Positions 1 through 52,858 of a DNA stretch of 64,000 nt are shown here, in pieces (the stretch's first letter is position 1; the number at the start of each line of letters is the position of its first letter). A program made the translations under genes and the position numbers. This DNA comes from Bigelowiella natans CCMP2755 (lineage: Eukaryota > Protista > Cercozoa): the NCBI GenBank assembly GCA_000320545.1, contig ADNK01003302.1, forward strand, positions 1 to 64,000. Reading direction: 5' to 3'. The notes under the pieces are model-generated. The model made no database searches. It saw nothing but the letters and a program-made list of their open reading frames with translations, and was not told the origin of the DNA.

Positions 1-2
1 CC

Positions 3-320
3 TTAAACCGTACCCGTCCCGTTCCGTCCCTCCCCTCCCCGACCCCCCCTACCCCCCCCCCCTACCCCCACACACACACACACACACGCCTGCATGCACA
101 AGACACCAACCTTTTTCAACATCTCTTTCATCTGGGACATAGCAAGGGATCTCAGGTCAAGCCGTTTCTCTTCCTCGCTGGCATCTTCATCAACTGGCGG
201 CCATTTGCACAAGGGCTTAGCAGCGGAGGAAGACGCATTTTCGGACATCTTTTCTGTGATGAGATGGAAAGGAGAATGGTAAATGCCACCGCGTGCAACT
301 TGTGGCGTGGTGGCTGGCAA
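3..320 (-). CDS. Possible 5' exon of a hypothetical gene running off the left edge
   Basis: ORF segment ...MSENASSSAAKPLCKWPPVDEDASEEEKRLDLRSLAMSQMKEMLKK, followed by a GT and a (GT)n/G-rich tract that looks intronic. No homology recognised. Confidence 0.3.
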   Translation of the reverse strand: MPATTPQVARGGIYHSPFHLITEKMSENASSSAAKPLCKWPPVDEDASEEEKRLDLRSLAMSQMKEMLKKVGVLCMQACVCVCVGVGGGGRGGRGGEGRNGTGTV

Positions 321-559
321 TGAAGGCGAGGAGGCAGGAAGAATGAAGAGCAGTGAATGCTAGAACACAGCGCGTAAATGAGGAGAACGCGAGTTCGTCG
401 CTCGTGTTCGATGTGACCCTGAGCACATGCGCATGCGGTAGATGTCCTCGAGCATTCCGGGCATTCGCTATTCTTTCTACTTTGTCATCGGTACCAACAA
501 ACAACACAGTTCACCTAGCCGCAACTCGTCATCTTGGCTTCCCTAGGTGTGGGTCACCA

Positions 560-1190
560 GCTAGTTGTGCAACTCATCACCAACAGGGTGCTGACAAGTC
601 CTTGCAACCTTTCAAAAACTTTGGTGCCTGAACCGCCGCGTCGGTGTCCATCTCGCACGCTGCCGCCTGAAGAAACTCAAGGAGTCGGCGATCACGAAAG
701 AATTGTTCGTGCTCGTGGGAGACGCAAAATCTCCACGTGGAAAACAATGGAAGTGAACACCAACCTTGCCCACCCAGGCCAGCAGGCCAGCACTGGAGCA
801 GGGCAAGCTGGCAAGGCTGCAGAAGGTGCAACACGTGCGTCCTTTGTTGATGAACCATCGGGTCGCTGTCGCACCCGTGCAAAAGACTCATGAGAGACTT
901 GTCCCAGGCCACACTCGGACAGCAAAAAACACAAGGGCTGGCAATGAGCTCTGAGGGCTGCACTCATTTGGGTCTTCCCAGAGAGCTGTGTCTGTGTCTG
1001 GACGCTCTGCAACTGGTCCTCAAGGTGTTGTGGCAAGATGGGGGAAACCAGTCCCACACCATGCTCAAGGATGGGGCGAACGAAAGTGTCCCAGAGATGA
1101 ATCCGTGTTCTGGGCTGTGAGCCTGCATGCCCAGCATCCCAGCATGCAACAAGCACAACAGTCAAGCCTGCGGAGGCTCTCTTTGCTGTT
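560..1190 (-). mobile_element. Degenerate non-LTR retrotransposon (LINE) ORF2 fragment, region just C-terminal of the RT domain
   Basis: Minus-strand translation RTRIHLWDTFVRPILEHGVGLVSP...LEDQLQSVQ resembles the common LINE motif 'LYxxxVRPILEYGxxxWSP...LESVQ'. The conserved Tyr appears as His (CAT at 1063-1061). No intact RT core seen. Confidence 0.55.
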
Positions 1191-1367
1191 GAACAATGAA
1201 CAATGAACAATGATGACGAACCACATTTCCAAAGTGTTGCAAGACATTTGCAGTGTGCGAAGTGCAGTGCCTCGAACAATGAACAATGAACAATGAACAA
1301 TGACAAAGAACTGCACTTCCAAAATGCAACAAGACATTTGCAGTGTGCGAAACGCAGTGCCTCGAAC
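1191..1367. repeat. Two imperfect ~85-90 bp tandem units, each (GAACAAT)3-4 plus a shared tail containing CAAGACATTTGCAGTGTGCGA...GCAGTGCCTCGAAC
   Basis: Direct alignment of 1211-1277 with 1301-1367. Confidence 0.9.
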
Positions 1368-1869
1368 TAACTTTGGTGAGGACCATCTGGTGAAACCAAA
1401 AGGAATCAAGAATGGCATTGTGGCCACTCCTCCGTTCCTAGTTTCATTGTTTGCTGGTGCCTGATGTTTGCCAACTTCAGGATCACGCATCCCCAAATCC
1501 TGTCGTGATGGTTTGCTCATGCTTGGAGATCACCAAGCAAGAACACCACACCTGCGACCCCCAAGAGCACAATCCCATGGACCACACCTTCATGGTCTAC
1601 TTCACACCTGCCACAACATCCCCGGCTCGAACTGTTGAGTTGTGAGCTAAGAGCGTTTCACTCTGGTGAATGTCGCAGGCAAAAAATTAAAGGCATTTTC
1701 GACAAATTTTTGCCTAAAGTGGGATGGTCACAACAGCGCCAGCACCTCACTGTGGAAACCTCCTTCAGAGAACGATGATGATGATGATGATGATGATGAT
1801 GAAAATCAAATGAACAATTTGAAAGGGCAAAAGGGGCCGAGCATTGTCTAAGGCGAAAAATAGTTCTCA

Positions 1870-3246
1870 GGATTCGGAAAGCCACCACAAACAAAGGAGA
1901 ATCAAGTACAAGAGCGAAGGTCGAGGTCCATTTGGAAAGGGAAAAGACGAAGAGGCATGTTCACTGTGAGTGATCTTTTCAAGGACGTGTATAAACGGCC
2001 TCCAGGCCATGAAGAATCCAATCGTGCTAGAAAATGTGAGAAAAGGGTTTTGAAAAGTGTCATCCGGCAAACAGATTTTCACAACAAACAAGTTGAGGAG
2101 GAAGAAATGTGGGCATCAAGGAAGAAGGAAGAGGATCTGGTAGGAAAATATTCTTTTTCCATGTAAAATGTCCATTTTTTCACTGTCACATAAATGTTAC
2201 AACATAGGGGTAGAGGTACACAATTTAATTTGAATGTTATTTGTTAGGATGAGCGAAGGGGGCCAGTGAAGAAAGGCCCTACGGGCAGAAAAGGTTACGA
2301 TACTCGAGGAGAGAATGGCGATGCCAGACATTCGTCACGTAAAAGACGGGGAAATCAGCCCAAAACAATATATATTAGAAAGAAGCCGCGGAAAAATGGA
2401 GGAGAACAAGATGCAGATGCGTCATTAAAATTCAAGAAACGAGCCGTGAAAATTGACTGGGAAGCAGAGGTTGACAGATACAACTTCCATAAAATTAACC
2501 CTAAGAACCTACTATTTGAAACACAACACAGGCTAAAACTATTTGTGTATATTTTTTAGCGTAGAAAGAATGAACGACTACGGGAACAGGCATGGATGGA
2601 GCGCTCGGCCTCGGATCCTCGCAGCGCGTAAGTTGTTTTGCTATGATACATTCAAAATTGTTATGAACTATGCGCTTCATTTATGGATTTCTTGCGTGCT
2701 AGCTCATAGAAATTGGGTGCATTACGTAGGTTGTTACGAAAAGTAGATATTGAAAGGAATATAGACGCAGGAGCGAGTGGTGAGAAAGAAGCGAAACAGA
2801 AGATTACAAAAGAATGCATAGACAACGACAGCACCTCAGACGTCGCAACAAATTCAAGTCAGCCAAAAGGCCGTAAGCACGTGAAAAAATCTCCGAAAAG
2901 GGAAAAAAGGAAAAAAAAAAAGGAGAAGAAGAGGAAGGAAAAGAAGAAAGAAAAGAGAAGGAAAAGGGAAAAAAAGAAGAAACGTCGCAAGGAAGAATCA
3001 GATCACAATGACGATAGAACGGAAGTTGAGGGAAGAGGAAACATCTCGACCGAACAAAAGGCTGATGTAATTTATAGTAATCATAACAATGTTCCTGGTG
3101 CTCAATTCCAAAAGCGGGATACAAATGTCCCAATTGACGTCAACGTTTCCGCTGCAGCTGATGGTAATGGAGGTGGTGATGGTTCAAGTTTGTCAAATTG
3201 TGTCCTTGCTGCTCTGAAGGAAGATGAAAGTGAGGCAGAAGACTAG
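1870..3246 (+). CDS. Spliced hypothetical Lys/Arg/Glu-rich protein (5' end uncertain)
   Basis: Consistent GT-AG introns at about 2140-2247, 2470-2559 and 2628-2729 join frames ...DERRGPVKKGP...IDWEAE/RRKNERLREQAWMERSASDPRSA/LLRKVDIERN...EAED*. Long basic KKKEKKRK tract. Normal TpA content. Confidence 0.5.
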
Positions 3247-4456
3247 AAAATACCCTAGTATGATGAACTAGTGGTGACCGACATCTTAGCTGCATGTTCA
3301 ATCAACCTGCAACACTTGCAGTTGATTATCTGTGCCGGAGCACGTATCTACAGCCATACATAATAAGCAATATGTAGACAGAGAACGTAGCATGCATGTG
3401 TGATGATGTGGAATTTATGCTTATGGCTCTCTTTACATAGCATGCATGCACATGTGACGGTGTGATCCATGTAGCCACGCACCACATCTAGCAGATCTAG
3501 AGATGCCGCGCTGTCAATCGCGCCGCGCCTTCATGGAGCGCATTTTCATTGTCAAAATGCGTACACTAGTGGCACGCATCACAGAAACACCAGTCCAGAA
3601 GATGACACAAATGCTTCGCGCATGCATGCACACCACATGCGCAACACTGGAACACGCCTAGCTAGCTGGCTAGCTAGACGCTCACGGCCATGCACGTCTG
3701 AACGTCGCATCCAGCCCTGGAGGCATGCAGGCATGTAGCACTCCATCTAGCTGTGCCATTTGCGATGCCCATGGCTTGATCACGCTGCTGCCAATGAAGC
3801 GGCGTAGACCATTGAGTCGCAAGTCACAAAAGAGCGTTGACATCATCAAAGCTCCACCGCACACACACTCTCAGACGCACTGCGCCAGCAGCATGACACA
3901 ACCAGCAGAAACCCGGCAACACTCTGCTGGTCTGGATTTAGCTGGGTGCAGCAGCATGCAACTCGACACCACACCAAGTGACGCTTGAAAACTTTCGAAT
4001 GCGATGAGCATGTGCAACGCTCGAGCAAGTTTCAGGGCGCGCGGGCGCGCACACGCACTTCCTGCTTTGCATGTGGTCATTCCAACCCTCAGATTTGGAA
4101 GCAACCTCACGCTGTTGTGAACACGGCAACTCGATCCAACGGCACGTCTAGACGTGCAAATCCACAATTGAGCATCGCGCACCTTTTCTGGTTTCAGCAA
4201 ACCAATGCCACACACGCTGGCACGGTTTGAGCATTTCGGGGCAAAAAAATGTTTTTTTGAGAACGAACGTCGCGTTTGTGGCGCTGCGATGCATGGCGCC
4301 ACGATGCAGCTGTCCGCTCAAGTGCGACAAGACACACAAGGCGTGCCAACGGAGCTGCACGTGCGTGTCGGACGCACCAGCACGACACTCCACGTGGGAC
4401 GATGCGGCACAATGAAAAACTCTCCGCGCAGAAGTTTCTCAGAAAGTTCGCAAGTG

Positions 4457-4879
4457 GCGACATGACAAAATTGAAAAGCTGACATTGCGACATGACAAAA
4501 GTGAAAAGCTGACAGCTTTTCATTCAAGTCGCAATTGCAACAATTCAGACACATCTCGACAGAACTCAAAAGTCCAAGTGACACATTGAGATCAGAACTC
4601 AACTGCACAAGCAAGCAACCAAGCACACTCAGAACTCAAACGACCAAGTGACATCAGAACTCAAACGTTCAAGTGACAAAGCAACTCAAGGACCAAACAA
4701 CAATGCAACTCAACGACTCATGCGACTTCAGTTCTCAACACGAGACCACATTGCACCACGCCCAACGCTGCAACAATCGACAGCTGCACTCGATGCAGAA
4801 CGAATCGGTTGCATGCGAGGGCGCACATTGCTGCAACAATCGACAGCTGCACGTGATGCAGAACGAATCGGTTGCATGC
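4457..4879. repeat. Cluster of short tandem/iterated repeats
   Basis: 28-bp unit x2 at 30-bp period (4457-4514); CAGAACTCAA x4 and CAAGTGACA x3 (4560-4680); 50-bp unit x2 at 63-bp period (4767-4816, 4830-4879). Confidence 0.85.
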
Positions 4880-5199
4880 AACAGTGCGCATGCGTCTCAA
4901 CTTCAACCCTGCGACACGCATGCTTCTGCACACGTGCGCAGCACCTCTGGACCTCAGATCCACCACCGCGGCACGCTGACCGATCAGCGTCACCCATTCC
5001 GAAGCACGCAGCTTGCCTGGACGAAGAGTTCAAGGACAACAGCCCGGCTGCGGCCGTTCTGCATGCGAATGGTTTCAATGCCGCGTCGCATCATCGCACC
5101 GCGCCTGCTGTCATGCAGGCTGAGCAAGTTCAGACAATCAACAAGGACATTGACAGCATGCCAACTCCCACGCAAGCGATGAATGCCAGGGCTGGGCAC

Positions 5200-5410
5200 A
5201 AATGCTTGAAAACAAACGTGTTTGCAAACACACTTGAACAAACATTGTTTGTTCAAATCAAGTGCTTGTTTGCGTGAGCTGGAGCAGCATTTGAACAAAC
5301 CAAACACAAGTTTGCAAGTGTTTGGTGTTTGGAAATGATTTTTCAAAGTGTTCGCATTTGTTCAAACCAAATCAAATCATGCAAAATGTGTTTGCAAACA
5401 TTTTTGGAAG
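5200..5410. repeat. Palindrome-rich block 1 (TGTTTGCAAACA / TTGAACAAAC motifs)
   Basis: Perfect palindrome GTGTTTGCAAACAC at 5218-5231; 11-bp-arm inverted repeat TTGAACAAACA-T-TGTTTGTTCAA at 5234-5256; TGTTTGCAAACA at 5389-5400. Confidence 0.85.
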
Positions 5411-6599
5411 TGTTTCAAGAAAATCACCAAAATTGAGCTTTTGCATGCGTCCAGCGTGGCCAATTGTTGCCGACATTGCTAGACAAATTTGAGATCGCCT
5501 GAGCTTGCGTTGTCGGTGAATTTCTGAAGAAAAATCACCCACGTGGCCACGGCGACCAGGCTAGCTGGCTAGGCCTGCGCATGTGCTGCGCATGCGCAGC
5601 ATGCACTCACGCAGCCGCTGTGCCATGCGCCAGCACACGTGCTGCGCACTGCTGCTCTGGTGCTGTTGGACTGCACATGCCAGCATGTGCATTGCTAGAT
5701 TGTGACGGACCATTGAAAAAAGTGACAGATCATTTCATTGCATCCGTCTCGCCACCATCTCGCCAGCATCTCGCAGCACTGATGAAACTTCATTGCTGCT
5801 AGCTCCAGTTGGCCAGGGCTAGCTGGTCAGCAGCACGTGCAGCAGCTGCTGTTGCGATCGTGCACATCTTGCGAGAGCGCAGCTCATTCTCATTGGTGCA
5901 ACAAACTGGCAATCAAAAACACGTGTCTGCAACATGCTGCATTGCTTTTGCTTCCCTGATTTCACCAAAGAAACAACCAATCAGATGCCATGTCAGCACT
6001 GTTTCAAATTGCATTTGCAATTGACAACCCCACCCGCAGGGCTTGTCATTTTCCATCAGAATGCATCTTCATGCATGAAGCTCCATTTTGGAGAAGCATC
6101 ACTCGGCATGAAAAGAAAAGTGATGATTTGAAGCCACGTCAGTCGAGTCCGAACGCATCTTCTTGTTGTGTGGCTTGACACTGACAGCGCGTCGAAGTGC
6201 ATTGTCGACAGACACAGCTGAAGCATGGGCAATGCTCAACAAATTGTCAAAGTTGGACAGATTTTGGAAAGTTCTCAAACACGAGAAAGGCACAGCTGGA
6301 GGTTGCAAAGTGGAGAAAAATGGTTCCTGAGTCTGTGGGGCTGAGTCCTGAGTCCTGAGCAGCCATGAGACGGATGTGATGAAGTGATTGAATCTTTTCA
6401 ATGGCAGCATGTGTGCGCCATGATGCTGCACATCCACATGCGCATGGCGTCTGCGCAACAACCACGTCCATCTGCAATGAGTTGTGAAGTTGTGCCTGTG
6501 CGATTGTTTGTTCCCTTTGTCACACGTTGCACAATGCGCATTCAAATGCATTGCGATTTGGTCTGTCATGTCGTGCTTTGCGCGCGCAGCTGCGCAGGA

Positions 6600-6790
6600 A
6601 CGTTTCAAATTTTTCAAATTGTTTGCAAATGATTTTCACAGGAAAATGTTTGCAAACATGTTTGCAAATGCTGCTTCTTGTTCGAACATCATTTGAACAA
6701 ACCAAACACCAGTTTCGCGACACGTGGGCATTGTTTGTTCAAATCAAACACTTGTTCAGAAGCAAAGCAAAGTGTTTCCAAACAAAAAAA
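6600..6790. repeat. Palindrome-rich block 2, related to block 1
   Basis: ATGTTTGCAAACAT at 6646-6659; shares CATTTGAACAAACCAAACAC and CATTGTTTGTTCAAATCAA with 5240-5310. Confidence 0.8.
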
Positions 6791-7383
6791 ATCATTTGTG
6801 CCCAGCTCTGATGAATGCACAAACCGAAGGCGCGACACGTTGCAAAAAAATTTTCAAAATCGATTGTTTGCACCTTCGCGTGCGTCAATTTGTTTCTGTC
6901 GCAACGCGAAAAGGTCCACGTGCAGAGGTTTTTGAGCGCACTGGAAGTCACCAGGAGCTCGTCAGATCGAGTCCACTGGAGTACATTCGCAATGCATGCA
7001 TGGAACGTGTTTTTTTGCAAACTTCCAATCTTTTGATGAAACTTGCCACGGTGCAGCCACCGCCACTAGACCATGCTCTGGTGCTGACACGCTCGCAAAG
7101 CCGATGTTGCAAGTTTCTCCTGTTTGTGAACGCATTTCTGTCAGCTCATCATTGGAAGCCACCAGGAGCTCGCCACCGCGACAGCGCATCCACCTAGCCG
7201 CGCTAGCAATGCAGCACGGGACCGCACGTGCAATGCACAAAAATCTGCTGTGTTCCTCAGGGACGACATGCGTGACACATTTGGACATCTAGACATGGAT
7301 GCATCTAGACATGGATTTGCCATGTCTAGATCCAGAGATGTCGCAGCGTTCGTGACTGACCCACCTCAGCGGCTGCATTCTGC

Positions 7384-8844
7384 ATGCAGTGCACCAACCT
7401 GGACGATGTCGCGTGGCTCGATGCTGTCATGCACAACGAGTTCCTCCCTGAGATCGCGCGCCGGGCTGTCGCGCCCAACGTTGCCGCATGCAACCAGTTC
7501 GTCGGACGGGCCACGCAACACCTGCGTGACACGTTCAATTCAGAATTTGCTACTTCAAAAGTTCACAGAAAAGGAAATGATGCAAACATTTTTGACGACA
7601 CAGGTTCATTTGACATTGCACACCTTCCAAGATTGTGCGACAATCAGGACAAATCAAAAACCGGATGTCTTTCCAACAAAAACACAGAAACATCGCACAA
7701 AAAAGGTTCCATTGAACATCAATTTCAAGAACTGATGAAACCAACATCAAGGCCATCAATTTCAGCATTGGATTCAACTTTCAAAGCTCCCGAGCCTTTT
7801 GAAAATGAAAATTGCAGCGGGGACCAATTTCGTTCCAGAGGAGGTCTTGATTTCCCCATGCTTTTGTGGGCCGCGCAAAGGCACAACACGTCGATCACGG
7901 AAGCCAAACACAAGTTCAACCTCCTCAAAAGCCTTTTGGAAAAATCAATGAACACGAACAAAACGAGCGCAGCCGACGCGCTGATCGGGAAGATGAACCT
8001 GATGCACCTGATCCAGGACGCCCGGACCCAGGTCGATGTGCTCAACCAGTTCCTCCCGGATGTCGATCCGCACACCCTCTGCAACCGGCTCGAGCTCGAG
8101 AACGTGGTCGGGGTCCACATCGAGAGCGCTGAGAACAGCTGCAGCAGTGACCAGGGAATCGGCAACAAGAAGGGCTCCGTCACGTTCCCCAAGATCAAGA
8201 CGGTGCTCGGTCTGCACGATTTCGTCAGCTCGGCCCGCAGCCGCAAGACCAACATTCTGACCGACACGATCTTCTCCAAACTCAACGCCCCCCCGTCCGC
8301 AGCTTCCGGGGCCCCTGGAGCCATCAAGGTCTGGGACATCAGCCCGCAAGCCCGGTGCAAAGCCTTCCACGCGCACACCCCGATCGCCTGCTTCGATGCA
8401 CACATCGAGTCCGAGCAGCGCAAGTGTGAAGCGCACAACGTGCAGTGCAAAGGAAATTTTGGTGATGACAAAAAGCAGCAGCTCACAAAATGCAAAGGCA
8501 TGACGATGAGCAAAGATGCGATCGATGCGGCTGTGAACCCTCTCATCCCTCGCTACTTGTCCTGGGTGCACCTCATCCCGGAAGGGAGCGTCACCTGGAT
8601 CATTGACACCAGTCTCCCTGGCAAGATGCACGTCGTGCACCCATTCTGGGAAACCACCGACACTGTGCTCAAACGCAGACGGGGGGGTGAGCGCAAGGGA
8701 AAGAGCAGCAACACAAACCTGCAGGAGCTGACCACCGTGCCCGATCTCGAGCATGCGATGTCGCACCTCCACCTCCCGCCTTCAGTGTGTGTCACAAACC
8801 CTCTCATGAACTTTGAGGAGCATTGCGAGGGGGCAGAAACCTGA
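7384..8844 (+). pseudogene. Intronless 486-aa orphan ORF, probably a hypermutated foreign (viral/TE) gene
   Basis: Protein-like composition and a GC3-rich middle, but only one Tyr (in a CTAC context) and an excess of His/Cys at positions where Tyr would fit. No family recognised. Confidence 0.55.
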
Positions 8845-9447
8845 ACATGACGATCAACACCAACAGCACTGGCGGCGGGGGCGCCGCCCCGGCCCCGGCA
8901 ACAGAGTCCGCGGAAAACTCGAATGTGTTGCCCGACGACGTGTCCAGCCTGAACCTGACGGCAGCTGACGTGACAGAACAAAGTGCAGGAACTGACCCCA
9001 GTCATCAAGTTCATCTTGGTGCGCCATTCGCAGCTGCGTGAGGATGCTTCCGGTGGGGCACCCCAACAGCACCGGTCGGTGATTTTGTTTGGTCGGCTTT
9101 GCAAGCACCACGCCGCAGATCGATTTCTCGTCGAGAAAAAAGGGGCTGTCCTCGTCTTTCAGCTCCGCGCTTGGCCGTTCAGCAAGAAGGGCGGCTTTTT
9201 TTCGATCGAATCCTGCGCATTTCGCAACGTCGTGGCAATTGTTTGTCAGAAACTCAGTGTCGATTTCTCCCATTTTCGCATCCTTGTGTTTTTGCTTCTT
9301 GTTTTTTTTCATGTCTCTTTGTCAAGTGTTGATTTTTTGTGTTTTCAGTGTGTCAACTTGTGTCGGTCTCAACAACAGTGCATCGCCGCAAAACAGAGAA
9401 AAAAAAACAGGGTGTGACCGAAAAAAAAAACTACGAACAAGAGTGTC

Positions 9448-10086
9448 TTGCAATCAAAACAACCAACTCCGTGCAATGTGCTCAAAAACGACAAAACCAA
9501 AGTGAACGAGATGCAAACGCGCCGGTTGCTTTTGAACAATTGCATGATGCACACGTTCGCGCAAAATTCCGGCATTTGTGACATGCAAATTGCTGACACT
9601 TTGAATGCAGTGACATTGAGTGGTGTGAAAAACATTGAACAGCACATGATGCTTGTGCGCGAATGCACACTGCGCGCAGACAGCGACGCAGAGTGCGCCT
9701 CGCTGCAGAGAGAGAACATCGCGCGCATCCTGGTCGGCGCAGCCGAGGCTTTGTGCACTCATCAGTGTTGCTTGCACAGGAAGTTCTGCGAATGCAAAAG
9801 CAGGGAAAAATCTTCAGAAAGTGGTGACAAAGAAAAAAAGGAACACATGCAAAAATGCCAATCGTGCAAAATCAAAAGCACAAACAACATGGCAAATGTC
9901 ACACTCATGATGGAAACCGTGAACTCCATGTGCGAACATGAGGTCATCGGGACCACTGTGTGCAAGCACATCATGAGTCAGTGCAGGCGCTGCCATGCAT
10001 TCAAAATCAACAGCAAACCACTGAAAATCATTGCTGAGGACGAAGAGAGTGCGTGTGGATTGAATGAAATGACCGATGTTTCGTGA
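9448..10086 (+). pseudogene. Intronless 212-aa orphan ORF, hypermutated
   Basis: No Tyr and many Cys/His/Met. Reads as a plausible helical protein if many C/H are restored to Y. Same strand as the 7384 ORF. Confidence 0.45.
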
Positions 10087-11067
10087 TGAAGAGACTTGCC
10101 TTGCACGTCAAAGCAAGCCATCAGTTTTCAATTTTTCCGAAGACAAACGATTTCTTGTCCATCCTGGTTGCGTTGCTACTGCTAGACTGCCCTCCACCCT
10201 TTGCAGCTTCACGCATTGATGTCAAGCAGCACGTCATGAGCAGGCTAGCAGGTGCAGTCGTCCAGGCTGTGCAGTGTGCAGAGAGTCAGTTGCGCGCTGC
10301 ACAATGATGCTAGAATTGGAAGTGCAATGGTGCTTTCTTCGCAAGGCAGCTTTGGATGTAGCTGTGGATGACGCATGGTTCAAACACACTGGCTAGCTAG
10401 CTAGCTAGCGCAGGATGTGACGAATGAAAATTTGAAGGCGACGGTCCACACTGGCACACGACCATGCACGATCATGCTGCTAGAATGCTGTCACAGCTAG
10501 CAGCTAGCTCAGCTAGCTAGCCTACTTCAGTGCTACACGCTGTCAAGTCCTACTGTCTTGCTTTGGACGCAAACACCTTCTAGACCTTGCACATGGCTAG
10601 ATGGGTGTGCCATGTCCAGCAGATGTGGTCACAGCCAGCACAGCTAGACAGCCGCGTTTTGCAATAGCCCTTGCTAGCTAGAGCCATCGAAATCACATGC
10701 ACAGCTAGATAGCAGTGTTGTGTGCCGGCAAGTCAGAACTGATTGGACACCACAACTCATGGCTGCACACTTGTGCAGTGTCACATGTTCCTGTATTCAT
10801 AGTGAATGTGTTGTTTATGAAGAAAGTTCCAAGCAAGCAACCGCTGCCGTGCACTATGGCCATATAGACGAGATGCGAACACAGCTTGGCAAGTGCAGCA
10901 CGTTCGCGTCCTATTACGGAGCCTGTCATTTGTTTGTCATAGTCGCGGAAAAACTCTACATTGCACAAAAACGAGTGTAATGAAAGTGAATCTTTCCATA
11001 CTATCTGGAGTTGCAATGCAACGGGCACTATCAGGGTTCACGTTAAATCCAGAATTTCACAAACATT

Positions 11068-14000
11068 CTACTCCATCGAATCAAACATATCTTCTTCCTC
11101 TTCCTCAGCTGGACCCGAGAGACTTGGAGCAGACATTGGTGTTTCATCGGGTGTCAGAAACTAAGTATAGCACACATTATTACACATTACACTTGATCCA
11201 TTGCATTGTTGCTGATTCTTTACACAGATTGGGTCAATACTTTCTTGGAGGCTTCCTTCGTATATTTGCTAGTTGCATCTTCTGTCTTATCTATCGGTCG
11301 CATCTTGGCATCCACCACCTTATAATCAGGTTGTAAGTTATACGCGCCCCATATACACGCAAACATACACACAGTGTGCCACTTTTTGAAATTTAATGTG
11401 ATAATAAAAGGTGTCCAAGGACTAGTAGACCCTATTCTAAGTGTCTGATTCCTGTGAATGTTGCTTTAATGTGTAACCAACCATATCCCAGAATGCCTTC
11501 CGATCTCTGAAAGACTTTGCTATTGCTTCCAATCCCGTGTTGAAGTCGCTGCTTTCCTCATTCTTCACGCACACTTCACGTAGCGCCTGTATACAGTCAA
11601 CTGCCTTTGGATATCCAGCAGATCCGAATGATTCTTGCACACAATCGTTAATAATCTTCCACATCTCTTTGATAGCACGGGTGATGATATCTGGATCATC
11701 CTTCCTGTCAGTAATCACGGGCAAGCATGTCACGCATAAATGTTACTACATTGCTGATGCTGATGATGCAGAAAATATAAGTAAAATGGGTCGTAATTAA
11801 AACTATCACCTTTCTGCCATAGCTTTAAGATCTTCAACAGGTGTTGCCGAACCGACCATATCCACTACGAAAACAAGCTCCATTTTTACACGCGCGGACA
11901 CATACACCACTGGCTGGCTCTCTCGCCACAACATCTTCATTCATTTGATAACTCCTGTTACCTTTGTGCGCAACGATGTCATCCATCTTGATTTTAGTGT
12001 CGATACCTTCCCCACCTAACGATGCTCCTTTCAACTTTTTAGCCTGGATGAGGTCTTCATCTTCTTGAACTAACATCGCACTAACATGTGCCACGGAACC
12101 ATCTCCTGATAGAAAATCTCTCCAGTGCCGCTTCTTATTCTAAATTAAAGATTATCACAAACCGACTGATCAACTACGAATATAGATTAAAGATGATCGT
12201 CAATCCAACTGATCAACTACAAATGGCAAGCAAGAAATACAGACGCAGTTCTCATGGCGAATGCAAATCTACCATCAAACACAACAAGCGATAAATAACA
12301 TAGGTAAGATAAGATATCTATCAAATTCATGAGGATGCAGTAGCTGAGCTTACTTTGGAAGCTGTTTTCTTCTCTACAACTTGGAGAGGAAATCTCTCAA
12401 CAACGTTCTTCACCTTAATTTTGAAAAAATACGAGAGTCAAATTGATGATATGTTGCATTCGTGCAAGAAATATATTGTTTTCAGAATAATAGTACGTAC
12501 TGTCAGTGAACAACGAGGCTATTAAGATTCTTCTAGTCAGTGAAGAAGATGACGTAAACACGATGTAGAGCGGGGAATATATACACAAACTACATGCGCT
12601 GTAAATATGATGTAATCGTGCTCGAAGAATCGATCTCAAAAATTTCCTCAATTTACTCAACAAATTAAACCTCCTTTTACCTCCTTTTTAGCCGAAATCA
12701 AAAGCTTTTCATCTGGATTTAGGGTCCTATGAAAAATGATATTAAACTTAATTCGTAGGAAGAAGGGCTGTTGCAGTATCTTGGACACACTAGGGAACTT
12801 TGGGACAGAAAGCAATAAAAGTCAACCAAGATCAAATTAGAGCTTTGTCTTTATCACTTCCTTCGCAACCTTTTACCCAGATTACTCAGTACCGCTACTA
12901 CTACAACCGTCTTCACATCAACCTCCGCACTCTACCACTGTTCTTATTATCTGACCACCATCTCATCCATAAGCCTACTTACTTTGCAACAGCTGGATCC
13001 AGCTCTTCTATAGATACCTCCGGATCGAATGCTCGCCTGTTTTTTGCGCCATCATTAGCATTTTCAACAATAAAAGTAGTTTGAGGAATAGATTTTTTTT
13101 GTATATTGAATCAATTAAATAAGTCGATTTTTTACCATATTTTGGTACAAAAATCTAACAGAAAACGACTGCAAGTTTGCACAGATTGGTGGGAACCACG
13201 AACTATAATTAATCAAGTATTTCATAACTACATGTTTACTTTTCGACGTTTTGATAGAAACGCCTAAGACATGGATTAAAAACTTCTTCCATGTTAAGGG
13301 CCTCAAATTCGAAACTGATTATGATTTTATTGATTCAGCAAATCAAGAAAAACAAGGAAAAAAGAATTGAAACAATGGTTAGCAGAGATTTCACAAATAA
13401 ACGAAGAGACAGAACATACAAAATATGGAGCTCGAACAAATTTCTTAAAATAATTGTATCTAAAATACACACACACCTAGACACACACACACACACGCAC
13501 CATGCAAAACATATGTGCATACACACATATATTACTAAATGCAAATTTTAAATACAATAGGAGGGTACCCGTCTTCGTCTTCCATTGAATTTAAATCCAT
13601 TCTTTTGATCAAATTACGCATCGCAAGCCTTTGATTCTGGTCTGGTTTGTGCTTTTCTTCGAAACTTTCCCATAAGAACACATAGAGGAAAAAAATAAGA
13701 AACACTATTATTGATTTTTAATATAAATATCATAAACTCTTCTCATTTTACAGACTGTGGTAAACCATATACGTATTAACTATCGTGTCAGTTTCACCTT
13801 CCGAAGACGTAGTCTCGATAGTCTTCTGAGAACGGAAGCTGATTCAAATACCTACATTGTATTCATATTTCATGCCCTCGTCATGCTGAGTATTCATTTC
13901 ATTAGTTTTAATCTTTTTGTTTTGTACTTTTCTATCCCCCCCCCCCCCTCCTCCATTTTATTCTCTTATGACTTACAAGCATTCATTTTCTGGGTTGATT

Positions 14001-34273: not shown

Positions 34274-37200
34274 ATGGCTGAGGTTCTTCATCCCTTTCAC
34301 TACCTCACACCCACGCACGCACGCATACAGACTGGTTGAAAATTTGGGAATAATTTAAATTATTGTGCAAAATTTCCTTCTCCACACCTTAAATGTATTA
34401 CGATGCACTAGTCTGCGCTAATGAGCTTTGAGACTCTGTCTGAACTACTGATCTGACCGAGTCTGTACAAGCGATGGAACTCTATGATGAAATGATGTTT
34501 CTCCTGCAAGAGTCTTGAATTATTTTCAAATATATCAGAAAAACGAGAAACTGGCCACCGTAGACCCTGTCCCGGCGGAGGAGGAGGCAAAAACGAAGGA
34601 AAAGAAGGAGATGGAAAAAATGAAGGAAGAGGATATGAAACCAAAAACTAAAGAAGATGAAGAAGAGGGAGACGAAATGGTCTGCATCTGTTTAAGATAC
34701 ACTCTTGTTAGATGGCTTACGTTTCCGTACATGTTGTGTGAAGTCTGAGGAAGATCGAAAGCTCAAGGAGACCCTGGAGCTACTCGTTAAGCAAGTCCAG
34801 AAAGATTTCGCTGCTGAAAAGGACGAAGCATTGCAGAAGTCAGCTATCGATAAATTGCGCGATCATGTTCGATCGTCTACAAGCTCGATGACTTCTGTAC
34901 CGAAGCCTCTCAAATTTCTGAGACCTCATTACAAGGAACTAAAAGAGTTCTTCGAAAGCATGAGGGCGGGTTCAAATAAGGTAGTAGAGTGTACGCAGAG
35001 TTTATATCAGAGTTTGTTTGACAAAGTTTTTGCAGAAACTTCTCGCCGATATTCTGTCGGTTCTCGCAATGACTATGGGAAAGCAGTCCCGTGAAAGCTT
35101 GAAGTACAAACTCATCGGCTCAGATGAACCTCTGGGCTCCTGGGGCCACGAGTATATTAGGTATAAAAAATACGTACAAATCGCTTGTTGCTTTCTTAAT
35201 GGGTCCTCTTTCACAGAAATCTCTCCGGTGAAATCGGTGTTGAGTACAACGAGCGTCTAGAGAAGGAAGAAAAGACTGAAGACCTGTAGGATTTCTTACA
35301 TATACATGTTGAAAAGTATCGAGTACGTTAATGTGTTCGATTCATTAGGATAAAGCTTGTTGACGAAATCATTCCATTCAATATGAAACACAATTCTGAA
35401 GCAGATGCTTGCGATCTTCTTATGGAGGTAGGTATTGTAGTATATATTTCCTGATCCAGCTTAAACTAGATATTTTCCAAGGTTTCAATGCTTGACAAGA
35501 TTCAAGAGTACGTGAACAAAGATAACCATGCCCGTGTCTGTCGATATCTTCTTTCTTGCTCGGATTACTTAAGCGATGAAGAAGAGATTACGAAGTTAAT
35601 GAAAATAGTTTCTACCGCTTACCGAAAATGCGGGCAGATGTGCGATAGTTTAAGAGTGGCAATAAAACTCAACGATCCAGCACTTGTGAAGGAAATTTTC
35701 GACGAAAGCAAAGGGTAAACTTCTAGTATGATTCTGTTTATTTCCCCTTTTAAATAAAATTTTCTGCAAAACCTTTAAAGGATTGAGAAAAGGCAACTTG
35801 CTTTTGTCATCGGGTCCGTAAAATATCCTATTGGAGAGTTCGAAGACGACGAAGAGGAGGAGGAACTCTTAGATATCATTGGCAACGTTCCGGTACGAAA
35901 TATTTTCCTAGATCTCGTCTGTCATCCAATTCTAATTTCTAGATCTATTAGTTGACCAAATTATATAATACGTTGGCGATGGAACTCGACGTCCAAGATG
36001 CTAAGACGCCAGAGGATATTTACAAATCGCACCTGGCTGACTCGGTAAGCAACCGACTGCAGCGTTCCAGACCAGCGAATGTCGATTCTGCTCGCAAAAA
36101 CCTTGCAGATTCATTTGTGAACGGATTCGTTAATGCTGGCTTCTCGAAAGACAAAGTTATAACCCCAAAAGGTGGCATACGCACTAGTTCACAACGAGAG
36201 AAGATCACATGATGGATTTTGTGGCTTAGGTTCGGACTGGGTTTTTAAGAACAAAGATCACGGGAAAATCAGCGCTGCAGCTTCCCTAGGAATGGTCTAC
36301 CTATGGGATACAGACGTTGGCGGCAACGAAATTGACAAATACAGCATGTCTAAGCAGAAGCAAGTGAAGGGCGGAGCTCTGTTGGGTATTGGTATCTGTT
36401 GTGCCGGTGTCACAGGTTCCATGTCGATGGCTCTCGCTCTTCTTTCAGACTACGTTGAAGAAAACGATGCGACGACAAAGACGATGGCAACGTTAGGATT
36501 GGGCATTGCTTACTGCGGAACTGGCAATGAGGAGGTTTCAGAGATTTTATTGAAGCTTGTGTCCCTAGAAAGCGAATCTATGGAGATTGCCTCAATTGCT
36601 AGTCTGGCTCTAGGGATGGTTTTCGCAGGGACTGCGAATGAGGAGATATCAGCTGCAATCTTAGACGTTTATCTCTTTGCTGATGAAAACCAATGCAAGG
36701 ATACCTCAGCAATTTACCTTTGCATCGGACTCGGTCTTCTATATCTCGGGCAAAGGGATACTTGTGAGCCAATCTTAGAGGCTACACAAGCCACTGAGAA
36801 CCCAATCTCGAAATATATGTCACTAACCATTGAAACATGCGCATATGCTGGCACCGGTAATGTTCTTTTGATCCAGAAGCTTCTAAAAGAAGCCAGTGAA
36901 CACATCGATGATGAAAAGATCAACAGGTAGTCTTCAGTATTGTCGCTCTGCTCACAAAAGTTGATTCAACAAATCTGTTATTAGGCATCAAGCAGTCGCA
37001 GTACTGGGACTGGCAATGGTGTCAATGGGGGAGGATTTGGGTAAAGAGATGATTGTGCGTTCGATGGATCACATCCTCCAGTATGCCGAAGTGAACGTTA
37101 CGCGTGCTGTTCCGCTGGCTTTGGCGTTACTAAACGTGTCCAATCCGGATGTATCGATCATGGATACTCTAAGTAAATTGACCCACGATGCCGACCAACA

Positions 37201-38977: not shown

Positions 38978-41076
38978 TTATGTAATATTCATGCGCTTTT
39001 CGTAATCTTCATGATAGGAGTTGCAGCGAGCCTTGAGCTTGTCGATGAATTTCTTCTTGCGGTTTTCAAATTTGAATTCTCCACCCTTGCAAATCTCGCA
39101 TGATACCCGCTTGGCTAGCTCCATTTCATCTTCTTTCATTAGCCTATCGACCAACCGAGATGCAGCTTCCGTCTCAAGAAGGTCCTGCATGTTGAACCTC
39201 ACCCTACAAATCTTGTAAAGGAGCATATTTGTGTCTACTAAATCACCTTCATCTATAACTTTTCTCTCCATTTTGCTACTTAACGACGACTGTATATCTC
39301 CATCCTCTTTCTTCCTGTCATAGAACGCCAACGTCCGATATCGCCGGTACCTCTGTTTGATCCGCTCATCGACCTTAGCAATGCCCTCCCCCTTTTTCCT
39401 GCTAAATGTTCTACTGCTACTTAGACAACGGTCTTTGAAGAAGTCCAGCAAGCTGCGTATGAGGTGGATGACAACCAGCTTATGCTGTTGCGACGCTAGC
39501 TTCACCGAGAGCTCATCGCAGCAGTCAAGCACGGCCTCTTTGGTCTGTGTTCGAAGATCAGGTTCCTTCAGGCACCATTCGAAACATCGGAATCCAACGT
39601 CCTTGCCGAGAAACTCACACTTCAGCGTTAGAACCTTCTTCCCAAACTTCAAAATCCTAAGCATCGGATCGTCGCCTCCTCCGCGTTCTTGCCGACGATA
39701 ACCCGCGAAAAGCGGTGTTTCGAGTAGCTTCGTTAGAGTTTCAATTCTACTCTGGTCAAGTAATGCCTCGAGTATGTCGTTCGGAGATGCGTAGTGCTTG
39801 AGAAGCGGGCCCTATAAAAGCCATAGTTTTTTTGCATACGTCCAAAAAAGGCAGCAAAATAAAAGGGAAAATAGATGAAGGGAACACAAAGAAAAGCAAT
39901 GAGGACAAACACGTTCAAGCACTTGGTAAAAGGAGAGATCATTCGTCCTCAATCATATTCACCAAAATGTAGTTTCGTATCTATTTCACTTGCTGCTACT
40001 ACTACTTTCACCACCAAGCGTGCATTGATACCTGCAGATCCTCTGGCAATGCAATCAGCATTCTTGAAGCCACAGTAACACGATCGAACCAGCGCTTTTC
40101 CGCACCGACCAGTTTACATTTCCTCTTAAAGAAACGTTCAAGGTATTGGACAACGATATGCACAGCGTGGGTAGACTCTAATTGCATGAGGAGCTTCTGC
40201 GCTACTTTAAACTTTCGAGTGTCGTCGAGGTCCTGTAGTTTTTTTATGGCTCGAATACGGTCTCTTGTTGGGGATCCTTTCCGAAGCAACCTTGCTATAT
40301 CAGCTGCAGAACGAGCGTCGAGGAGGGTTGTCTCAAGCTCCAAGATCATAGTTTTATTATTATGTGGGTTGGTAGCGAAGAGGTGGAAGATCTTCTCCGC
40401 TATTACAACCTGGCGACAAGGTATGATAGTTTCGATCACGTGCTTAAGATCTTTCTCACAATTGCTTTCCAAGGCACGCCAGTCCTGTAATAAGATTCCT
40501 AACTCAGAGCTACCACCTCCTAGTCCTCCTCCCCGCTCTCTCACATCGTTTCGGAGTGCTTCTACAAGTTGCTGGTAGTAGAGACAAATCCTGTACTTGC
40601 GCCTTACTCGTCGAATGAGCATCTCATTTACAGCAGCAGGTAGACCAGCTGCAGCAGTAGTAGTACCGATCTTACAATCATCTCTTCTGGTGTTGCCGTT
40701 ATTCATAGTGTCATCATCACCATCGTAGTTGATACTCGTACCAGCAGCATCAGGCTGCTGGTTCCTTTTTGACATTATCGTCGTCTGATCATCACCACTA
40801 TTCTTGACTGTGTTGTAACTGCTTCTACTACTGCTACTACTTTTATCCATCATAGCGTCGAGATCCGCTAGAAGGTTGAATAACACCTTTTCGTTGATAC
40901 ACAACAACACGTACACTATATATATTCGTTGTGTTTACCATAAACAAAACTCGCGTTAACGCAAGAATGAATTCGTCTTTAAAGGATAGGCAGCACGCTA
41001 TAGCATTATGACTCACAAAATCATGTAAGATCATTCTAACCGTTTGCTGTTTGAGCAGCATGATAGCGTGCACACA

Positions 41077-41137
<61 letters not shown>

Positions 41138-43648
41138 ACACACACACAAATACAGACCACACACCAGAGACTACAAATAGAGCAGGAGAGCACTCATTTG
41201 AATAATATCCTTTTCACACATGTTCAGCATTCAGAAGTAATCACAGCATCTCCACCCACATGGCCGCCTTTCCTCTGTTTGTTACCTGCAAGCACATCTT
41301 AGCGTCGGGCCAAAACTTGATATAGCTGAGACAAAGAACCGCTGCACGTTGAGCGTCCTTCAGTCGCAAGATACACCTCATTCGAAACTCTTCCACTTTT
41401 CGGTACTCATCATCGCTCTTTTTCTGGTCCTTTTCTCGACCATCAAGGAATGACGATGTATTCGTAGCTGCTGCTGCTGTTGGTGTTGCTGCCGATGGCA
41501 TTGACAAGTGTTGTCGCTGCCTTTGAGATGACAAAAATGATTGCTTCGGAGGAGGGAGAGGAGGGTTTGGGATGAGGGGGATAATTCGGCTAAGGAGTTC
41601 CTGCACTATAGATTGCGCTCTTGGGGAAGATAGATCCAGGTATCTGTATAGGAAGAAGAGAAGATAAACAGTCAGCAATGATGATAGATCACAAGCAGGA
41701 GGAAGAGAAGAAAATCGGAGAGCAGACGTAACAAAAACACTACTTGCAGCAGTGAGAACAAATTAACCTTTCCGCAATACGAAGGGCCTTCACAAGGCGA
41801 CTTAGCAGCCTGCTGTTGCTACTGTTTCTCTCCCCCCGTGGCGGTGATGATGATGACGACGATGATGTCACGTTGGTGGTGGTGGTGGTGGTGGTGCCAA
41901 GATGACGTTGTCGTATTCCATCAGTTGTCTGAGCAAGACTAAGGGGTAGGCGGTTGCTGCTGCTACTGCTGCTGCCCTTTGGTTTATTCTTCTCCTGATG
42001 TTCTCTCTCTCCTCCTACTTCTATACCATTCTGCTGCTGCTCGATTGTAGTAGCAGTAGTAGTAGTACTACTAGTAGTGGTAGTTGATTTGCTGAGAAAT
42101 CTTAGGAGAATGTTCTCATACACTTTACCATCGCCTTTTACAGTTTCTTCGCGGAATCCCTCAAGGTAGCCGGCACGCATCATCGTTCTTAGTTCTTCTG
42201 CATCATCCAGTATATGAAGCGCGTTGAGGTACGTGGACACCCGCCATGACATCCATCGATGGAAAGCTGGTAAAAATGATGCTGTCTTTACAGCTTGTTC
42301 ACCTACCGCTCGCATCTGATCGATATCTTGACCGGATGATGCAGCTGGTAGTGCTTGCCGTACACATAACAAAGGAAGGAGCACCCGCTGGGCTAATGCG
42401 CCAACCCGACGAATCACATCTGGAGAGGGGCGGCTTGTGTCGCGGCGGAGGAGAACATGCTCATATGGATGGGTGGTACGATAGTGATGATGATAATGCT
42501 GCCCGTGCCGATAACTACTATTCTCATCGTCGCCACTGCCATCTTCGGTAGTATTACCGTCGTCGTCATCATTAACTCTGCTTTGCTCTTCCCCTTGATC
42601 TTCTTCACCTTCATTTCCTACTCTCCTCCTCCTCCTATCATAGTTAAAGTGAATTCCATTGTTGTTGCTTTCATCATCATCGTACTTATAGTCGTAATAT
42701 CTACTACTGTCGCTTCTCCCCCCTTGGCTAGCCTCTTCAAACGGCACACCGACTGCATCAGGAGGAGGAGGAGATCCCCGCCCAAATGCATCGTTCTCAT
42801 AGCCATAGTTGAAGTCCCAGCTTGGCGAAAGGAGAAAGTCATTATGCTGCTGCTGCTTTTGGTGCTTTAATACAAGGGAGGAGGAGGAGGATCTTGTTGC
42901 CTTTGGTGATGCTAATGATGGTGATGATGATGATAATGGTGGTGGTGGCGGTTGTAGCTGCTGCATGGGTATCGGCGCTTGAATCCCCTCAGCAACTCTT
43001 GCTAAATACTCCAAGATCTTGTAGTAGCTGCCCCCCCCCTGCCTACCCGGCCGCTGGTATTGGCGAGTGTTTTCACCGCCGTCGCCATGATGATCTGGGC
43101 TGCTACTGCCCCCTTCTTCTTCTTTTTCGTCTTCTTTGTCGTTGTCTAAGCAATAACGTTCGTATTCTCTCAAGTACTGCAACCTCATCGTGCCATTCCA
43201 ACCACCAGTGCTGCTGCTGCTGCTACTTTCTTCATTATTCTTGGTGACAAAGCCAGCAGCTCCACGAACAATATTCCGTGATGATTTCATATCAGATGCT
43301 GATGAGAATGATGACGACGATAACGTTCTTGTCCCTGTTGTTGTTCCTGTCCCTCCCCCCCCCGCGGAATCTCCTAAGCCATTGTTCCCGCTTCCATTTG
43401 CACCGCCACCTCCTCCCCCCCCCCCTCCATACTGGCGAATCCAATGAAGGAGAGCGTTAGGAGCAATTCCAGCATGATGATGATGACTGCTGCTCTTGGA
43501 ACCGCTCTTAAGGGTCGGGTTACTGCGGCTTGTAAGTACTCCAGTTGTTGTCGCAGTTGTTGTCGCAGTAGTAACAGCAGCTGTAGGCCCATTCCTTTAT
43601 ACGACATAGTAGTAGTAGTAGTAGTAGTAGTAGTAGCGGTGGTGGTGG

Positions 43649-43689
<41 letters not shown>

Positions 43690-45567
43690 TCGTGAATATA
43701 CTAAATCATGTTGGTTGTTGTTCACACAGAGGAAAAGAGCAATTAAAAGAGGGTAGTAGTAGTAGAAAAGAGAATTATCAACGATAATAGGTTTGGATTT
43801 TCTTCTAAAAAATAAGAATCACCAAGGATATGATTAGGCTTCTCTCTGCAAACACCTGTCGTCTCACTCTATAATACTACTACTCTCTCATCATCAATTA
43901 TTCAGAAACGCGTGCATCACGAAACCATCATCATCATCATCATCTCTTGTTCCATTGTTGTCTTCTTCGTTCCCTCGCTGCTATTTTACCCGTTTCTAGC
44001 AATGTGGTAGTCAGCAAATTGAGAGATTATATCGAATGCAGGCCTCGCTCCATGATCAATAATTGGAAGTAACAGCGTGGAGGCGCGGTTATGATGAAGA
44101 AACTTCTGTGCTGATGGTGCCTCCCTGCCCTTATCATCATCCTCTGATTTCTCCTTTGCTCTTTTCTTCTTATCCCCTGTATAACTACTAGTAGATACCT
44201 CAGTTTGCAGCGGCCGCATGCTCAGCAACCTGTTGGTGAGTGCGAGATAAAACTCGTAAAGGCGCTGTTCACGGTCGTAAGCGGTTATTGCAATGCTTGT
44301 CTTGCTGAGATATTTCTTAGCAAACTCCAGGATTTGCCGATATATGGTGGCAGAGAATCGATGTCGGAAGGTCACAGCAAGGTCAATTGCAAAGAAAAAA
44401 CCTTGTAAAGGTGGGCTGCTCATAGACGACGAGGAGGAGGAGGGCGATGACGACGACTGTGGTGATGAACCACTTGCAATCTCTTCTTCACCTTCCTCCC
44501 CTCCTCTTCCCTCTTCTCTACCCGCTCCTCCTCCTCCCTTGTTCTCCTCATGAGCCTCATTGTTTGCAAACTCAAGGATGAGATCTTTTATGCCTTTCAC
44601 CAGCAGGTTCTTATTTCCATTTTCTATTCTCCCCTTCTTCTTCCTCCTAGATCTCTCGTTGTTCCTCTCTCCATTATTATTATTATTATTTCTTCTAGTG
44701 CTGAAAGGTATGCTCTTCTCATCATTATCGAAGTCTTCGTCATTATCATAACCACCACTATACTTAAAACCGTTATAATCATCCTTAGAATTGTATTGGG
44801 TACTTTTTATCACGAGTTCACTAAGTTTTGACCAGCATTGTGCCTCTTTTATCAGTTTTTGGTGCTCATCTCCTGGTGGCCTGCGGTCTGTAAAGAGCTT
44901 TCCAATCTCGCGTAGCCTATTGAGCCTTAAGAATCGTGCAGAAATGACCTCGAGAGGAGCCACCATTAGCTTGAGCGTTGCCGTTTTGTCATCAAGATTC
45001 CGAATCACACTCAACCGCCAAAGTCCCTCCTTCACATGTGCCTCGAGTGCAAGGAGACGGGTCATCATCTCGGGGCTAGGCAAATTCGCATTATTTCTTT
45101 TCTTCTTCTTGTTGTTGTTCTTTTTTTTCCTTCTTTTCTCCTCGTTTTCAGTCGTACCAGCCCCAGCGTTAGCTGAAGCGGCAGTAGCAGCAGTAGAACG
45201 ATGATGTGAATTTGTTTGCGGGGTAAAGCTGCTGCTGCTGCTATCTGCTGCTGTGTCTGCTGGTCTGCGCTCACTGTCGCTTGCTGCTGCCTCAATCTGG
45301 AGATTTAGCTTTGAAATAACTCGATGCAAATGTGTTAGAATGACCTCGCAGTCGTTCAGACTAACCACAAATTCTGCCTCCTCGCCGTCTTTAAGCTCAT
45401 GGTAAGAAGTCTTGAAAGGAGAAGATGATGACGGCATCGACGATGACGATGACGAAACTCCCGCGCTGCCACTTCTCGGACCCTGGGGATTATGAGATTA
45501 TTGTTATTATTATTTGCTGAGACTTCATGGTGGATCGATGATGACTGTTTACTGCTGCAGGTTGCAT

Positions 45568-45600
<33 letters not shown>

Positions 45601-45609
45601 CAATGACGT

Positions 45610-45645
<36 letters not shown>

Positions 45646-47209: not shown

Positions 47210-47241
<32 letters not shown>

Positions 47242-47916
47242 TTCCCCCGCATGATACCACTACTACTACTACTGCTAGCACTTCGTCCCTGAATTTCGAG
47301 CAACATCTTGTTTTCGAGGGCACAAAATCGCCTAAGATGATACTCATGGCTTGTATCTTTGCCAGTGAGGAGAGCAGAGTACACAGCACACCGCATCTTT
47401 AGAGTGCGTTGGTACCGATTGACGACGCTTTCAGCCCTCAAATCGTCGAGATCGCGCGAAGGACCTGGCTGCTTTGGCTTGCGAGGTTTGAATCTATCAC
47501 GGAACAGACGTGAAACTTTCTCCTCTAGGTTTTCATGCTTTCTCTCGTGGATACATGCCGCAAACGCTTGAAAGATGCGGTCAATGGCCTCACTCCTCCG
47601 CGGTTTCGTGTATACTTGTGATACTAGCACTCTCAGCGCCTCGCAGGCCTGAGAGAATTCATTCTCTCGAAGAAATAGCATCTCACCGATAATAGCACTG
47701 TAAAATTCGGCCAATTCCAACGCCCCAGATTCTCCAGTTGAGTAGTTGGTGAGCCTATAGCGGGTACTACTACTACTACGATGTCCACTACCAACGACTT
47801 GGAAAACAGAGGAAAGACGATGATGATGGGTGAGTCCTCCTCCTCCTCCTCCTCCTCCTCCTCCTCCTCCTCTTCCACTGTTGTTGCTGCTACTGCTTGT
47901 AGTATTATTATTTGTG

Positions 47917-47949
<33 letters not shown>

Positions 47950-48650: not shown

Positions 48651-48693
<43 letters not shown>

Positions 48694-52826: not shown

Positions 52827-52858
<32 letters not shown>

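Follow-up and report, generated by a model that had tools for sequence, protein, structure and literature searches.

Near-complete loss of TpA by change to TpG or CpA in a repeat-bearing island of the Bigelowiella natans genome

An island at positions 4150-10170 of contig ADNK01003302.1 of Bigelowiella natans CCMP2755 has lost nearly all of its TpA dinucleotides, which were changed to TpG or CpA on both strands alike. It lies in a stretch of 64,000 nucleotides (positions 1 to 64,000 of the forward strand, called the window below). A first-pass annotation of this stretch had proposed a genome-defence process acting through this change, and had known of no characterised pathway of the kind. The latter statement has to be corrected, since the same signature has been measured de novo and surveyed in B. 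natans (10.64898/2026.01.13.699255). In the mutation-accumulation study of Mettrop et al., 231 of 302 nuclear mutations fell in two viral regions, and 230 of the 231, each of them at a TpA, were A>G or T>C; they arose in a subset of lines, with a rate near 6e-7 per site and generation (10.64898/2026.01.13.699255). The same preprint reported 124 TpA-poor clusters genome-wide, enriched in DDE and RT domains, and proposed an ADAT-like deaminase, for which B. natans has an ADAT2-like candidate (Bn78255). No other report of TpA to TpG/CpA hypermutation was found among the literature matches listed, as judged by titles and abstract starts. The island is very probably a footprint of this published process, to which it adds a further locus.

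Results

Loss of TpA from the island

TpA occurs 16 times across 4150-10170, where about 363 are expected from base composition (observed to expected ratio, rho, 0.044). The host part of the window (12000-64000) has a TpA rho of 0.82, and at this rate the deficit in the island corresponds to a Poisson P of about 1e-103. Direct counts reproduced the pattern described in the first-pass annotation, with no TpA in 4151-5479 and 5822-6981 (gaps of 1331 and 1162) and only three in 7330-10170, at 7551, 8554, and 9432. Its other statements on composition were also borne out. Across 4150-10170, where the GC content is 0.51, CpG is retained (rho 0.93) and CpA/TpG is in excess (rho 1.60), while host DNA is rich in TpA, the stretch 59501-60000 carrying 53. 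Tyrosine is nearly absent from the two open reading frames (ORFs) of the island when counted stop to stop, with 1 in 494 residues of the main ORF (7360-8841) and 0 in 222 residues of the second (9418-10083).

On a grid set here, five of the 64 1-kb windows, all below position 10000, fall within both cluster cut-offs of the preprint, and three consecutive ones do so at 4001-7000; the island may be among its 124 clusters. No further copy of the island was found within the 64-kb window, and an Rfam search of 1-12000 gave no match. Short tandem duplications were seen in the TpA-free zones at 1190-1367, 4457-4678, and 4759-4884 (90-bp, 25-37-bp, and 63-bp spacing, respectively).

The sequence was compared with Logan contigs of three DNA runs (X1, X4, and X14), which represent three samples and three studies, one of which may be the source sample. 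There were no differing letters in 3970-4305 and 8640-9250 in all three runs. The stretch 3100-3995 was identical in X1 and X4, as was 3100-3784 in X14; 6762-7441, which spans the junction of repeats and ORF, was identical in X1 and X14, as was 6762-7231 in X4; and 7500-7876 was identical in X1 and X4. None of the listed contig pieces covers the whole island, and the agreement applies to these single pieces. Because the contigs match letter for letter, including the repeat/ORF junction, an assembly artefact is ruled out where tested.

Direction and strand symmetry of the change

The change was polarised by comparison with two intact homologues of the main ORF, P0002 and P0003, and evaluated by Fisher tests. 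P0002 and P0003 agree in 399 alignment columns. Of the 12 Tyr residues in these columns 11 were altered (7 to His, 4 to Cys), compared with 45 of the 387 residues of other kinds (P=1.8e-9), and four Ile residues had become Met (ATG). In the ORF starting at 9478, seven of seven conserved Tyr were altered (3 to Cys, 2 to His, 1 to Thr, and 1 to Phe) compared with 38 of 168 others (P=5e-5). Pooled over both ORFs, 16 of the 18 lost Tyr sites now encode His or Cys. Since Cys and His are balanced (7 versus 9, P=0.80) and no Tyr became Arg, both strands were hit, one at a time and without double hits. The homologues themselves hold 19-20 Tyr in 681-686 aa, and those of the second ORF 7-11 in 204-205 aa. 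Removal of Tyr without new stops, as the first-pass annotation had it, is borne out by the comparison with intact homologues.

Copies of the repeats were also compared with each other, using the best-supported 40 of 292 variant rows. Twelve of the 40 form six CA/TG swaps and 14 have TpA in another copy, so that 26 are compatible with an origin from TpA; six involve CpG versus TpG/CpA, and eight are of other kinds. Together, the polarisation by homologues and the CA/TG swaps uphold the proposed two-strand TpA to TpG/CpA process on foreign or repeated DNA. None of the findings named beforehand as damaging to that proposal turned up.

Survival of TpA preceded by C

The few remaining TpA are not a random sample, a point that the first-pass annotation did not note, just as it passed over the second TpA-free zone at 562-1368. 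Across 3440-10790, 55 TpA survive, 39 in CTAG and 11 in CTAC/GTAG. On at least one strand 53 of the 55 read CTA, in comparison with 1329 of 3681 host TpA, and CTAG accounts for 39 of 55 survivors versus 127 of 3681 in the host (P=3e-42). The sole remaining Tyr of the main ORF sits in a CTAC. Within the repeats, deep DNA contigs carry TpA alleles at 5452, 5540, 5567, 5814, 5825, 5908, and 6135, all seven of which are CTAG or CTAC if the neighbouring letters equal those of the window. These results demonstrate the survival of CTA contexts in the island. In the main text of the preprint such a sparing rule is absent, with no occurrence of CTAG, trinucleotide, or flanking (10.64898/2026.01.13.699255).

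CTAG reaches a density of 29/kb in the right margin of the island and 11/kb in the left, versus 2.4 in the host. Both margins (3440-4150 and 10170-10790) show GCTA-type runs, and their CTAG exceeds what survival alone would yield.

Transcription and apparent escape from TpA loss

Between the two TpA-free zones lies a likely spliced gene (Table 1), which has a TpA rho of 0.63 over 2050-3430 and an RNA depth of 12.5 at its 3' end (3100-3305). No specific Pfam family was found for it. RNA depth never rose above 0.2 in 7387-8844, and no RNA data set was among the matches listed for the island sequence. The RNA evidence comes from one RNA run, of which about 6 in 100 reads were read, and from the variant rows shown. 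At 5994, 6012, 6054, 6064, and 6100, 53-125 RNA reads each all carry the T that makes a TpA. Such contexts make up only 3 of the 55 TpA that remain in the island. At three of the five sites these TpA alleles also occur in shallow DNA contigs. Because the RNA reads keep TpA in contexts that were erased here, a transcribed sister copy of the repeat seems to have escaped the loss. A TpA-keeping transcribed copy is absent from the main text of the preprint (10.64898/2026.01.13.699255).

The repeats and a hAT-like element

Judging by the contigs of each DNA run, the genome holds many relatives of the repeat nest at 3970-7230 in other places. It contains a non-autonomous element of 1624 bp (5187-6810), whose termini pair at 17 of 18 bases within imperfect arms of about 210-230 bp, and which is flanked by identical 8-mers at 5179-5186 and 6811-6818. 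Insert-free contigs are present, with joints from 5171-5177 to 6809-6810. No transposase family was found in two scanned frames that overlap it (6099-6635 and 6697-7194). Terminal inverted repeats and a target duplication of 8 bp are hAT features according to PMC3942097. The main text of the preprint does not mention hAT (10.64898/2026.01.13.699255). The element resembles the non-autonomous hAT elements treated there in both respects, and differs from them in its long imperfect arms and an interior packed with other repeats. The 40-bp stretch 6364-6404 is joined to many different flanks in the DNA contigs, and in 99 RNA reads position 6404 is followed by a tail resembling poly(A).

Table 1. 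Positions of the features described in the 64,000-nucleotide window
Feature	Coordinates	Strand	Basis and remarks
Second TpA-free zone	562..1370	no strand	empty at 562-1368; TpA rho 0.044; loss tapers over 1370-2050
5' piece of putative split gene	610..753	+	tblastn: 92% identity to B. natans aug1.10_g4670 over residues 135-182
Likely spliced low-complexity gene	1864..3246 (limits approximate)	+	open frames; RNA reads at 3' end
Left margin	3440..4150	no strand	13 TpA: 8 CTAG, 3 CTAC
Repeat nest, TpA erased	3970..7230	no strand	many variant contigs and high summed depth in 3 DNA runs; internal repeats
hAT-like non-autonomous element, 1624 bp	5187..6810	no strand	terminal inverted repeats; 8-bp flanks
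Inner inverted repeat, about 40 bp	5710..6404 (5710-5750 and 6367-6404)	no strand	part of repeat with many flanks
3' piece of putative split gene	7387..8844	+	resumes 1 residue after the 610-753 piece; last ~20 residues lost
Second ORF	9478..10086	+	two relatives of 204-205 aa in Logan contigs, both at 66% identity; all 7 conserved Tyr lost
Right margin	10170..10790	no strand	25 TpA: 18 CTAG, 5 CTAC; normal TpA from ~10800
Proteasome Rpn1	34696-36930		ordinary host gene
AATF/Bfr2	52548-54026		ordinary host gene
Peptidase C78	55646-56215		ordinary host gene
Magnesium chelatase ChlH, N-terminal extension	60032-64000		ordinary host gene

The split gene

The main ORF (7387-8844) is 73-79% identical to intact homologues of 681-686 aa, the nearest named paralogue being B. 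natans aug1.10_g4670 (P0003). By alignment, this ORF and the short piece at 610-753 read as two parts of a single gene, about 6.6 kb apart. The space between them is occupied by the repeat nest and by the transcribed gene that keeps its TpA. A 9-mer is shared by the regions near the two ends of the 754-7386 insert; a reading of it as a target duplication was rejected, as it does not lie cleanly at the junctions.

The gene is likely of giant-virus origin, judging by the numbering of its paralogue; no hallmark gene of nucleocytoplasmic large DNA viruses (NCLDV) was seen in the window. A profile search related 12 proteins to it at E<=0.001. The family (P0137-P0145 in alignment A4, which leaves out P0139, P0141, P0146, and P0147) consists of proteins of 630-790 aa with conserved motifs and without a known domain or fold match. 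A relative left out of the alignment, P0141, gave a weak LEF-9 match over 29 residues. A PDB sequence search found no match for the split gene, and Atlas searches with P0003 and P0140 gave no usable feature match and structures with TM <0.3. A structure model from three sequences had a pLDDT of 30.5; one from ten sequences reached a pLDDT of 64.9 and a pTM of 0.67. Foldseek searches of BFVD and PDB with the latter model found nothing at E<=0.001, and the best Z in a wide search was 4.8. The best-conserved part of the ORF, 7852-8826, measures about 975 bp, and the preprint cites a 994-bp match of the scaffold-10 virus on another scaffold; the two are possibly the same thing.

Host genes elsewhere in the window

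The ChlH protein is 79-90% identical to proteins of Norrisiella sphaerica and Chlorarachnion reptans, at most 64% identical to the other 118 listed matches, and 100% identical over 590 residues to further sequence records; these values mark the host as a chlorarachniophyte. An exact look-up of four window proteins found no identical entry. On the minus strand of 38978-49281, several long low-complexity frames (277-935 aa) lie among many microsatellites and are probably exons of one large host gene.

Discussion

In this study, the island was found to have lost TpA almost completely, in the direction of TpG and CpA and symmetrically with respect to strand. We consider it probable that it is the near-saturated footprint of a host deaminase of the ADAT/TadA type, working on silenced DNA, here transposon debris and a likely viral split gene. 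Taken by itself, the deaminase is a candidate agent with about an even chance of being the right one; it was named in the first-pass annotation and is also the hypothesis of the preprint. As to the class of target, the repeats and the hAT-like element are demonstrated, and the viral part is inferred.

The process could have run as follows. Viral-type and transposon DNA would have come to lie here and then have been silenced. The A of TpA would be converted to inosine, one strand at a time, and be fixed as G at replication, which would leave TpG or CpA. A C before the TpA would slow the reaction, and CTAG, which reads CTA on both strands, would therefore last longest. The transcribed central gene and at least one transcribed sister copy would escape. 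As the change removes TAA and TAG and makes no in-frame stop, frames would stay open and the proteins would be spoiled by missense. A more specific picture is offered tentatively, with a little less than even confidence: the mutator could be a chromatin-guided DNA adenine editor that takes TpA after A, G, or T but hardly touches CTA, so that CTAG would remain as a fossil barcode, that follows silencing rather than foreignness, emptying nested transposons and their flanks but not the transcribed gene among them or the transcribed sister copy, and that may add a slower CpA to CpG step.

The expected composition was modelled forward by applying a TpA-only change to host DNA. This reproduced the CpA/TpG rho (1.65-1.92 in the model, 1.4-1.75 seen) and the ApA rho, which is not lowered (1.16-1.28 in the model, 1.26-1.46 seen in the core zones). 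The CpG rho of 0.58 in the zone 562-1370 also agrees with the model.

A number of observations weigh against this account. The CpG rho is 0.90-1.01 in 4150-10170 versus 0.56-0.60 in the TpA-only model, the GpC rho is 1.57 in the repeats versus 1.0-1.14, and 29 CTAG per kb in the right margin, compared with 2.4 in the host, goes beyond what TpA loss alone would give. Adding a slow CpA to CpG step to the model brings its CpG rho to about 1.0, and a CpG-rich ancestor is an equally possible source of the high value. Of the protein differences, the TpA change accounts for only 19 of 56 in the main ORF and for only 9 of 45 in the other; the remainder is divergence of other kinds between the copies. 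At 6552-6553, CA stands for TG in 27 of 27 RNA reads, which come from a mutated copy, so that transcription is not always an escape; likewise, a virophage region is hypermutated though its expression is not unusual (10.64898/2026.01.13.699255). Ongoing change was not seen, as CTAG/CTAC and other TpA at 3100-3995 were constant across runs, where a raised de novo rate is poorly visible given that rare variants are lost from contigs and that not many fast targets are left. The viral origin of the split gene is argued from a single fact, the closeness in gene numbering of aug1.10_g4670 to aug1.10_g4662, the major capsid gene of an integrated giant virus on scaffold 10 (10.64898/2026.01.13.699255). 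Scans of IMG/VR and JGI metagenomes found no relative of it, and no Pfam family passed the cut-off for the gene or its aligned relatives.

The alternative that survives best, unlikely as we judge it, is that the T of TpA is the target: an oxidised thymine (5-hydroxymethyl- or 5-formyluracil, made by an enzyme of TET/JBP type) would mark silenced DNA and be misread as C. Thymine modification is known in protists and 5-formyluracil can mispair with G, both of which bear on this idea. In sequence, A>G on one strand is indistinguishable from T>C on the other, and the context rule can equally be read as a sparing of TAG. Against it stand the TA preference documented for TadA-type enzymes in PMC13225742 and the presence of an ADAT2-like candidate in B. 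natans (10.64898/2026.01.13.699255). No such base or enzyme came to light for this lineage in the analyses made.

Error-prone repair synthesis by a Pol-eta-like enzyme, or biased mismatch repair, in silenced chromatin appears improbable. Pol eta prefers WA, and such synthesis would yield A>G on both strands, tapering at the margins as seen; it might also permit the slower CpA to CpG step that lifts the CpG rho of the model to about 1.0. The WA option, which had been raised in the first-pass annotation, is disfavoured because ApA is kept at the level of the TpA-only model (rho 1.26-1.46), and the preprint places all GC-biased changes at TpA (10.64898/2026.01.13.699255). That the DNA arrived poor in TpA, or owes its composition to selection or to decay of CpG with no targeted mutator, is hardly credible: TpA is mildly scarce in most DNA (host rho 0.82) and 6 of the 40 variant rows set CpG against TpG/CpA, but native avoidance is rejected by homologues with 19-20 Tyr and by sister copies that keep TpA or were resolved the other way, CpG decay by the retention of CpG, and coding and non-coding parts were emptied alike.

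In the literature searched, eukaryotic defence by A:T to G:C hypermutation has one description, the 2026 preprint. To it the present locus, which shows the end state of the process, adds two testable constraints, namely a flanking-base rule by which CTA is spared and the apparent escape of transcribed DNA, as well as the anatomy of a split gene. If the picture of a CTAG barcode is true, the barcode could be used to follow the pathway through the genomes of eukaryotes and to test directly the specificity of the candidate ADAT2/3 pair (Bn78255 and Bn77986). Base editing, too, would have an interest in a DNA adenine deaminase that occurs in nature.

Repeat-induced point mutation (RIP) of ascomycetes changes CpA to TpA and makes stops, and it depends on the methyltransferase-like protein RID and on the pairing of homologous DNA during the sexual phase. 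The island is similar to RIP in its locus-wide, dinucleotide-specific transitions on both strands, in the spoiling of repeats, and in leakage into the flanks, and opposite to it in the direction of change. The fungal signature of CpA to TpA change and TpA enrichment was not found, and classical RIP is rejected here, as TpA is depleted (rho 0.044) and CpA/TpG raised (rho 1.60). The name 'inverse RIP' used in the first-pass annotation is a fair analogy and no more. An analogy to RIP is also drawn in the preprint, and the main target there is single-copy (10.64898/2026.01.13.699255). Engineered TadA editors, including TadA-8e, prefer TA motifs in their genome-wide off-target changes according to PMC13225742; they share with the island A>G change on DNA with a TA preference, and differ from it in being engineered and in showing a preference rather than a near-absolute TpA rule. 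The closest likeness is to the TpA hypermutation of integrated NCLDV and virophage DNA in B. natans itself, which the island matches in the change, in its occurrence on both strands, in foreign or repeated targets, and in lineage. In addition, its main ORF has a paralogue on scaffold 10 whose gene number is close to that of the capsid gene. Compared with the scaffold-10 viral region (TpA rho 0.45; 10.64898/2026.01.13.699255), the island is near completion at a rho of 0.04, and transposon debris has been hit as well.

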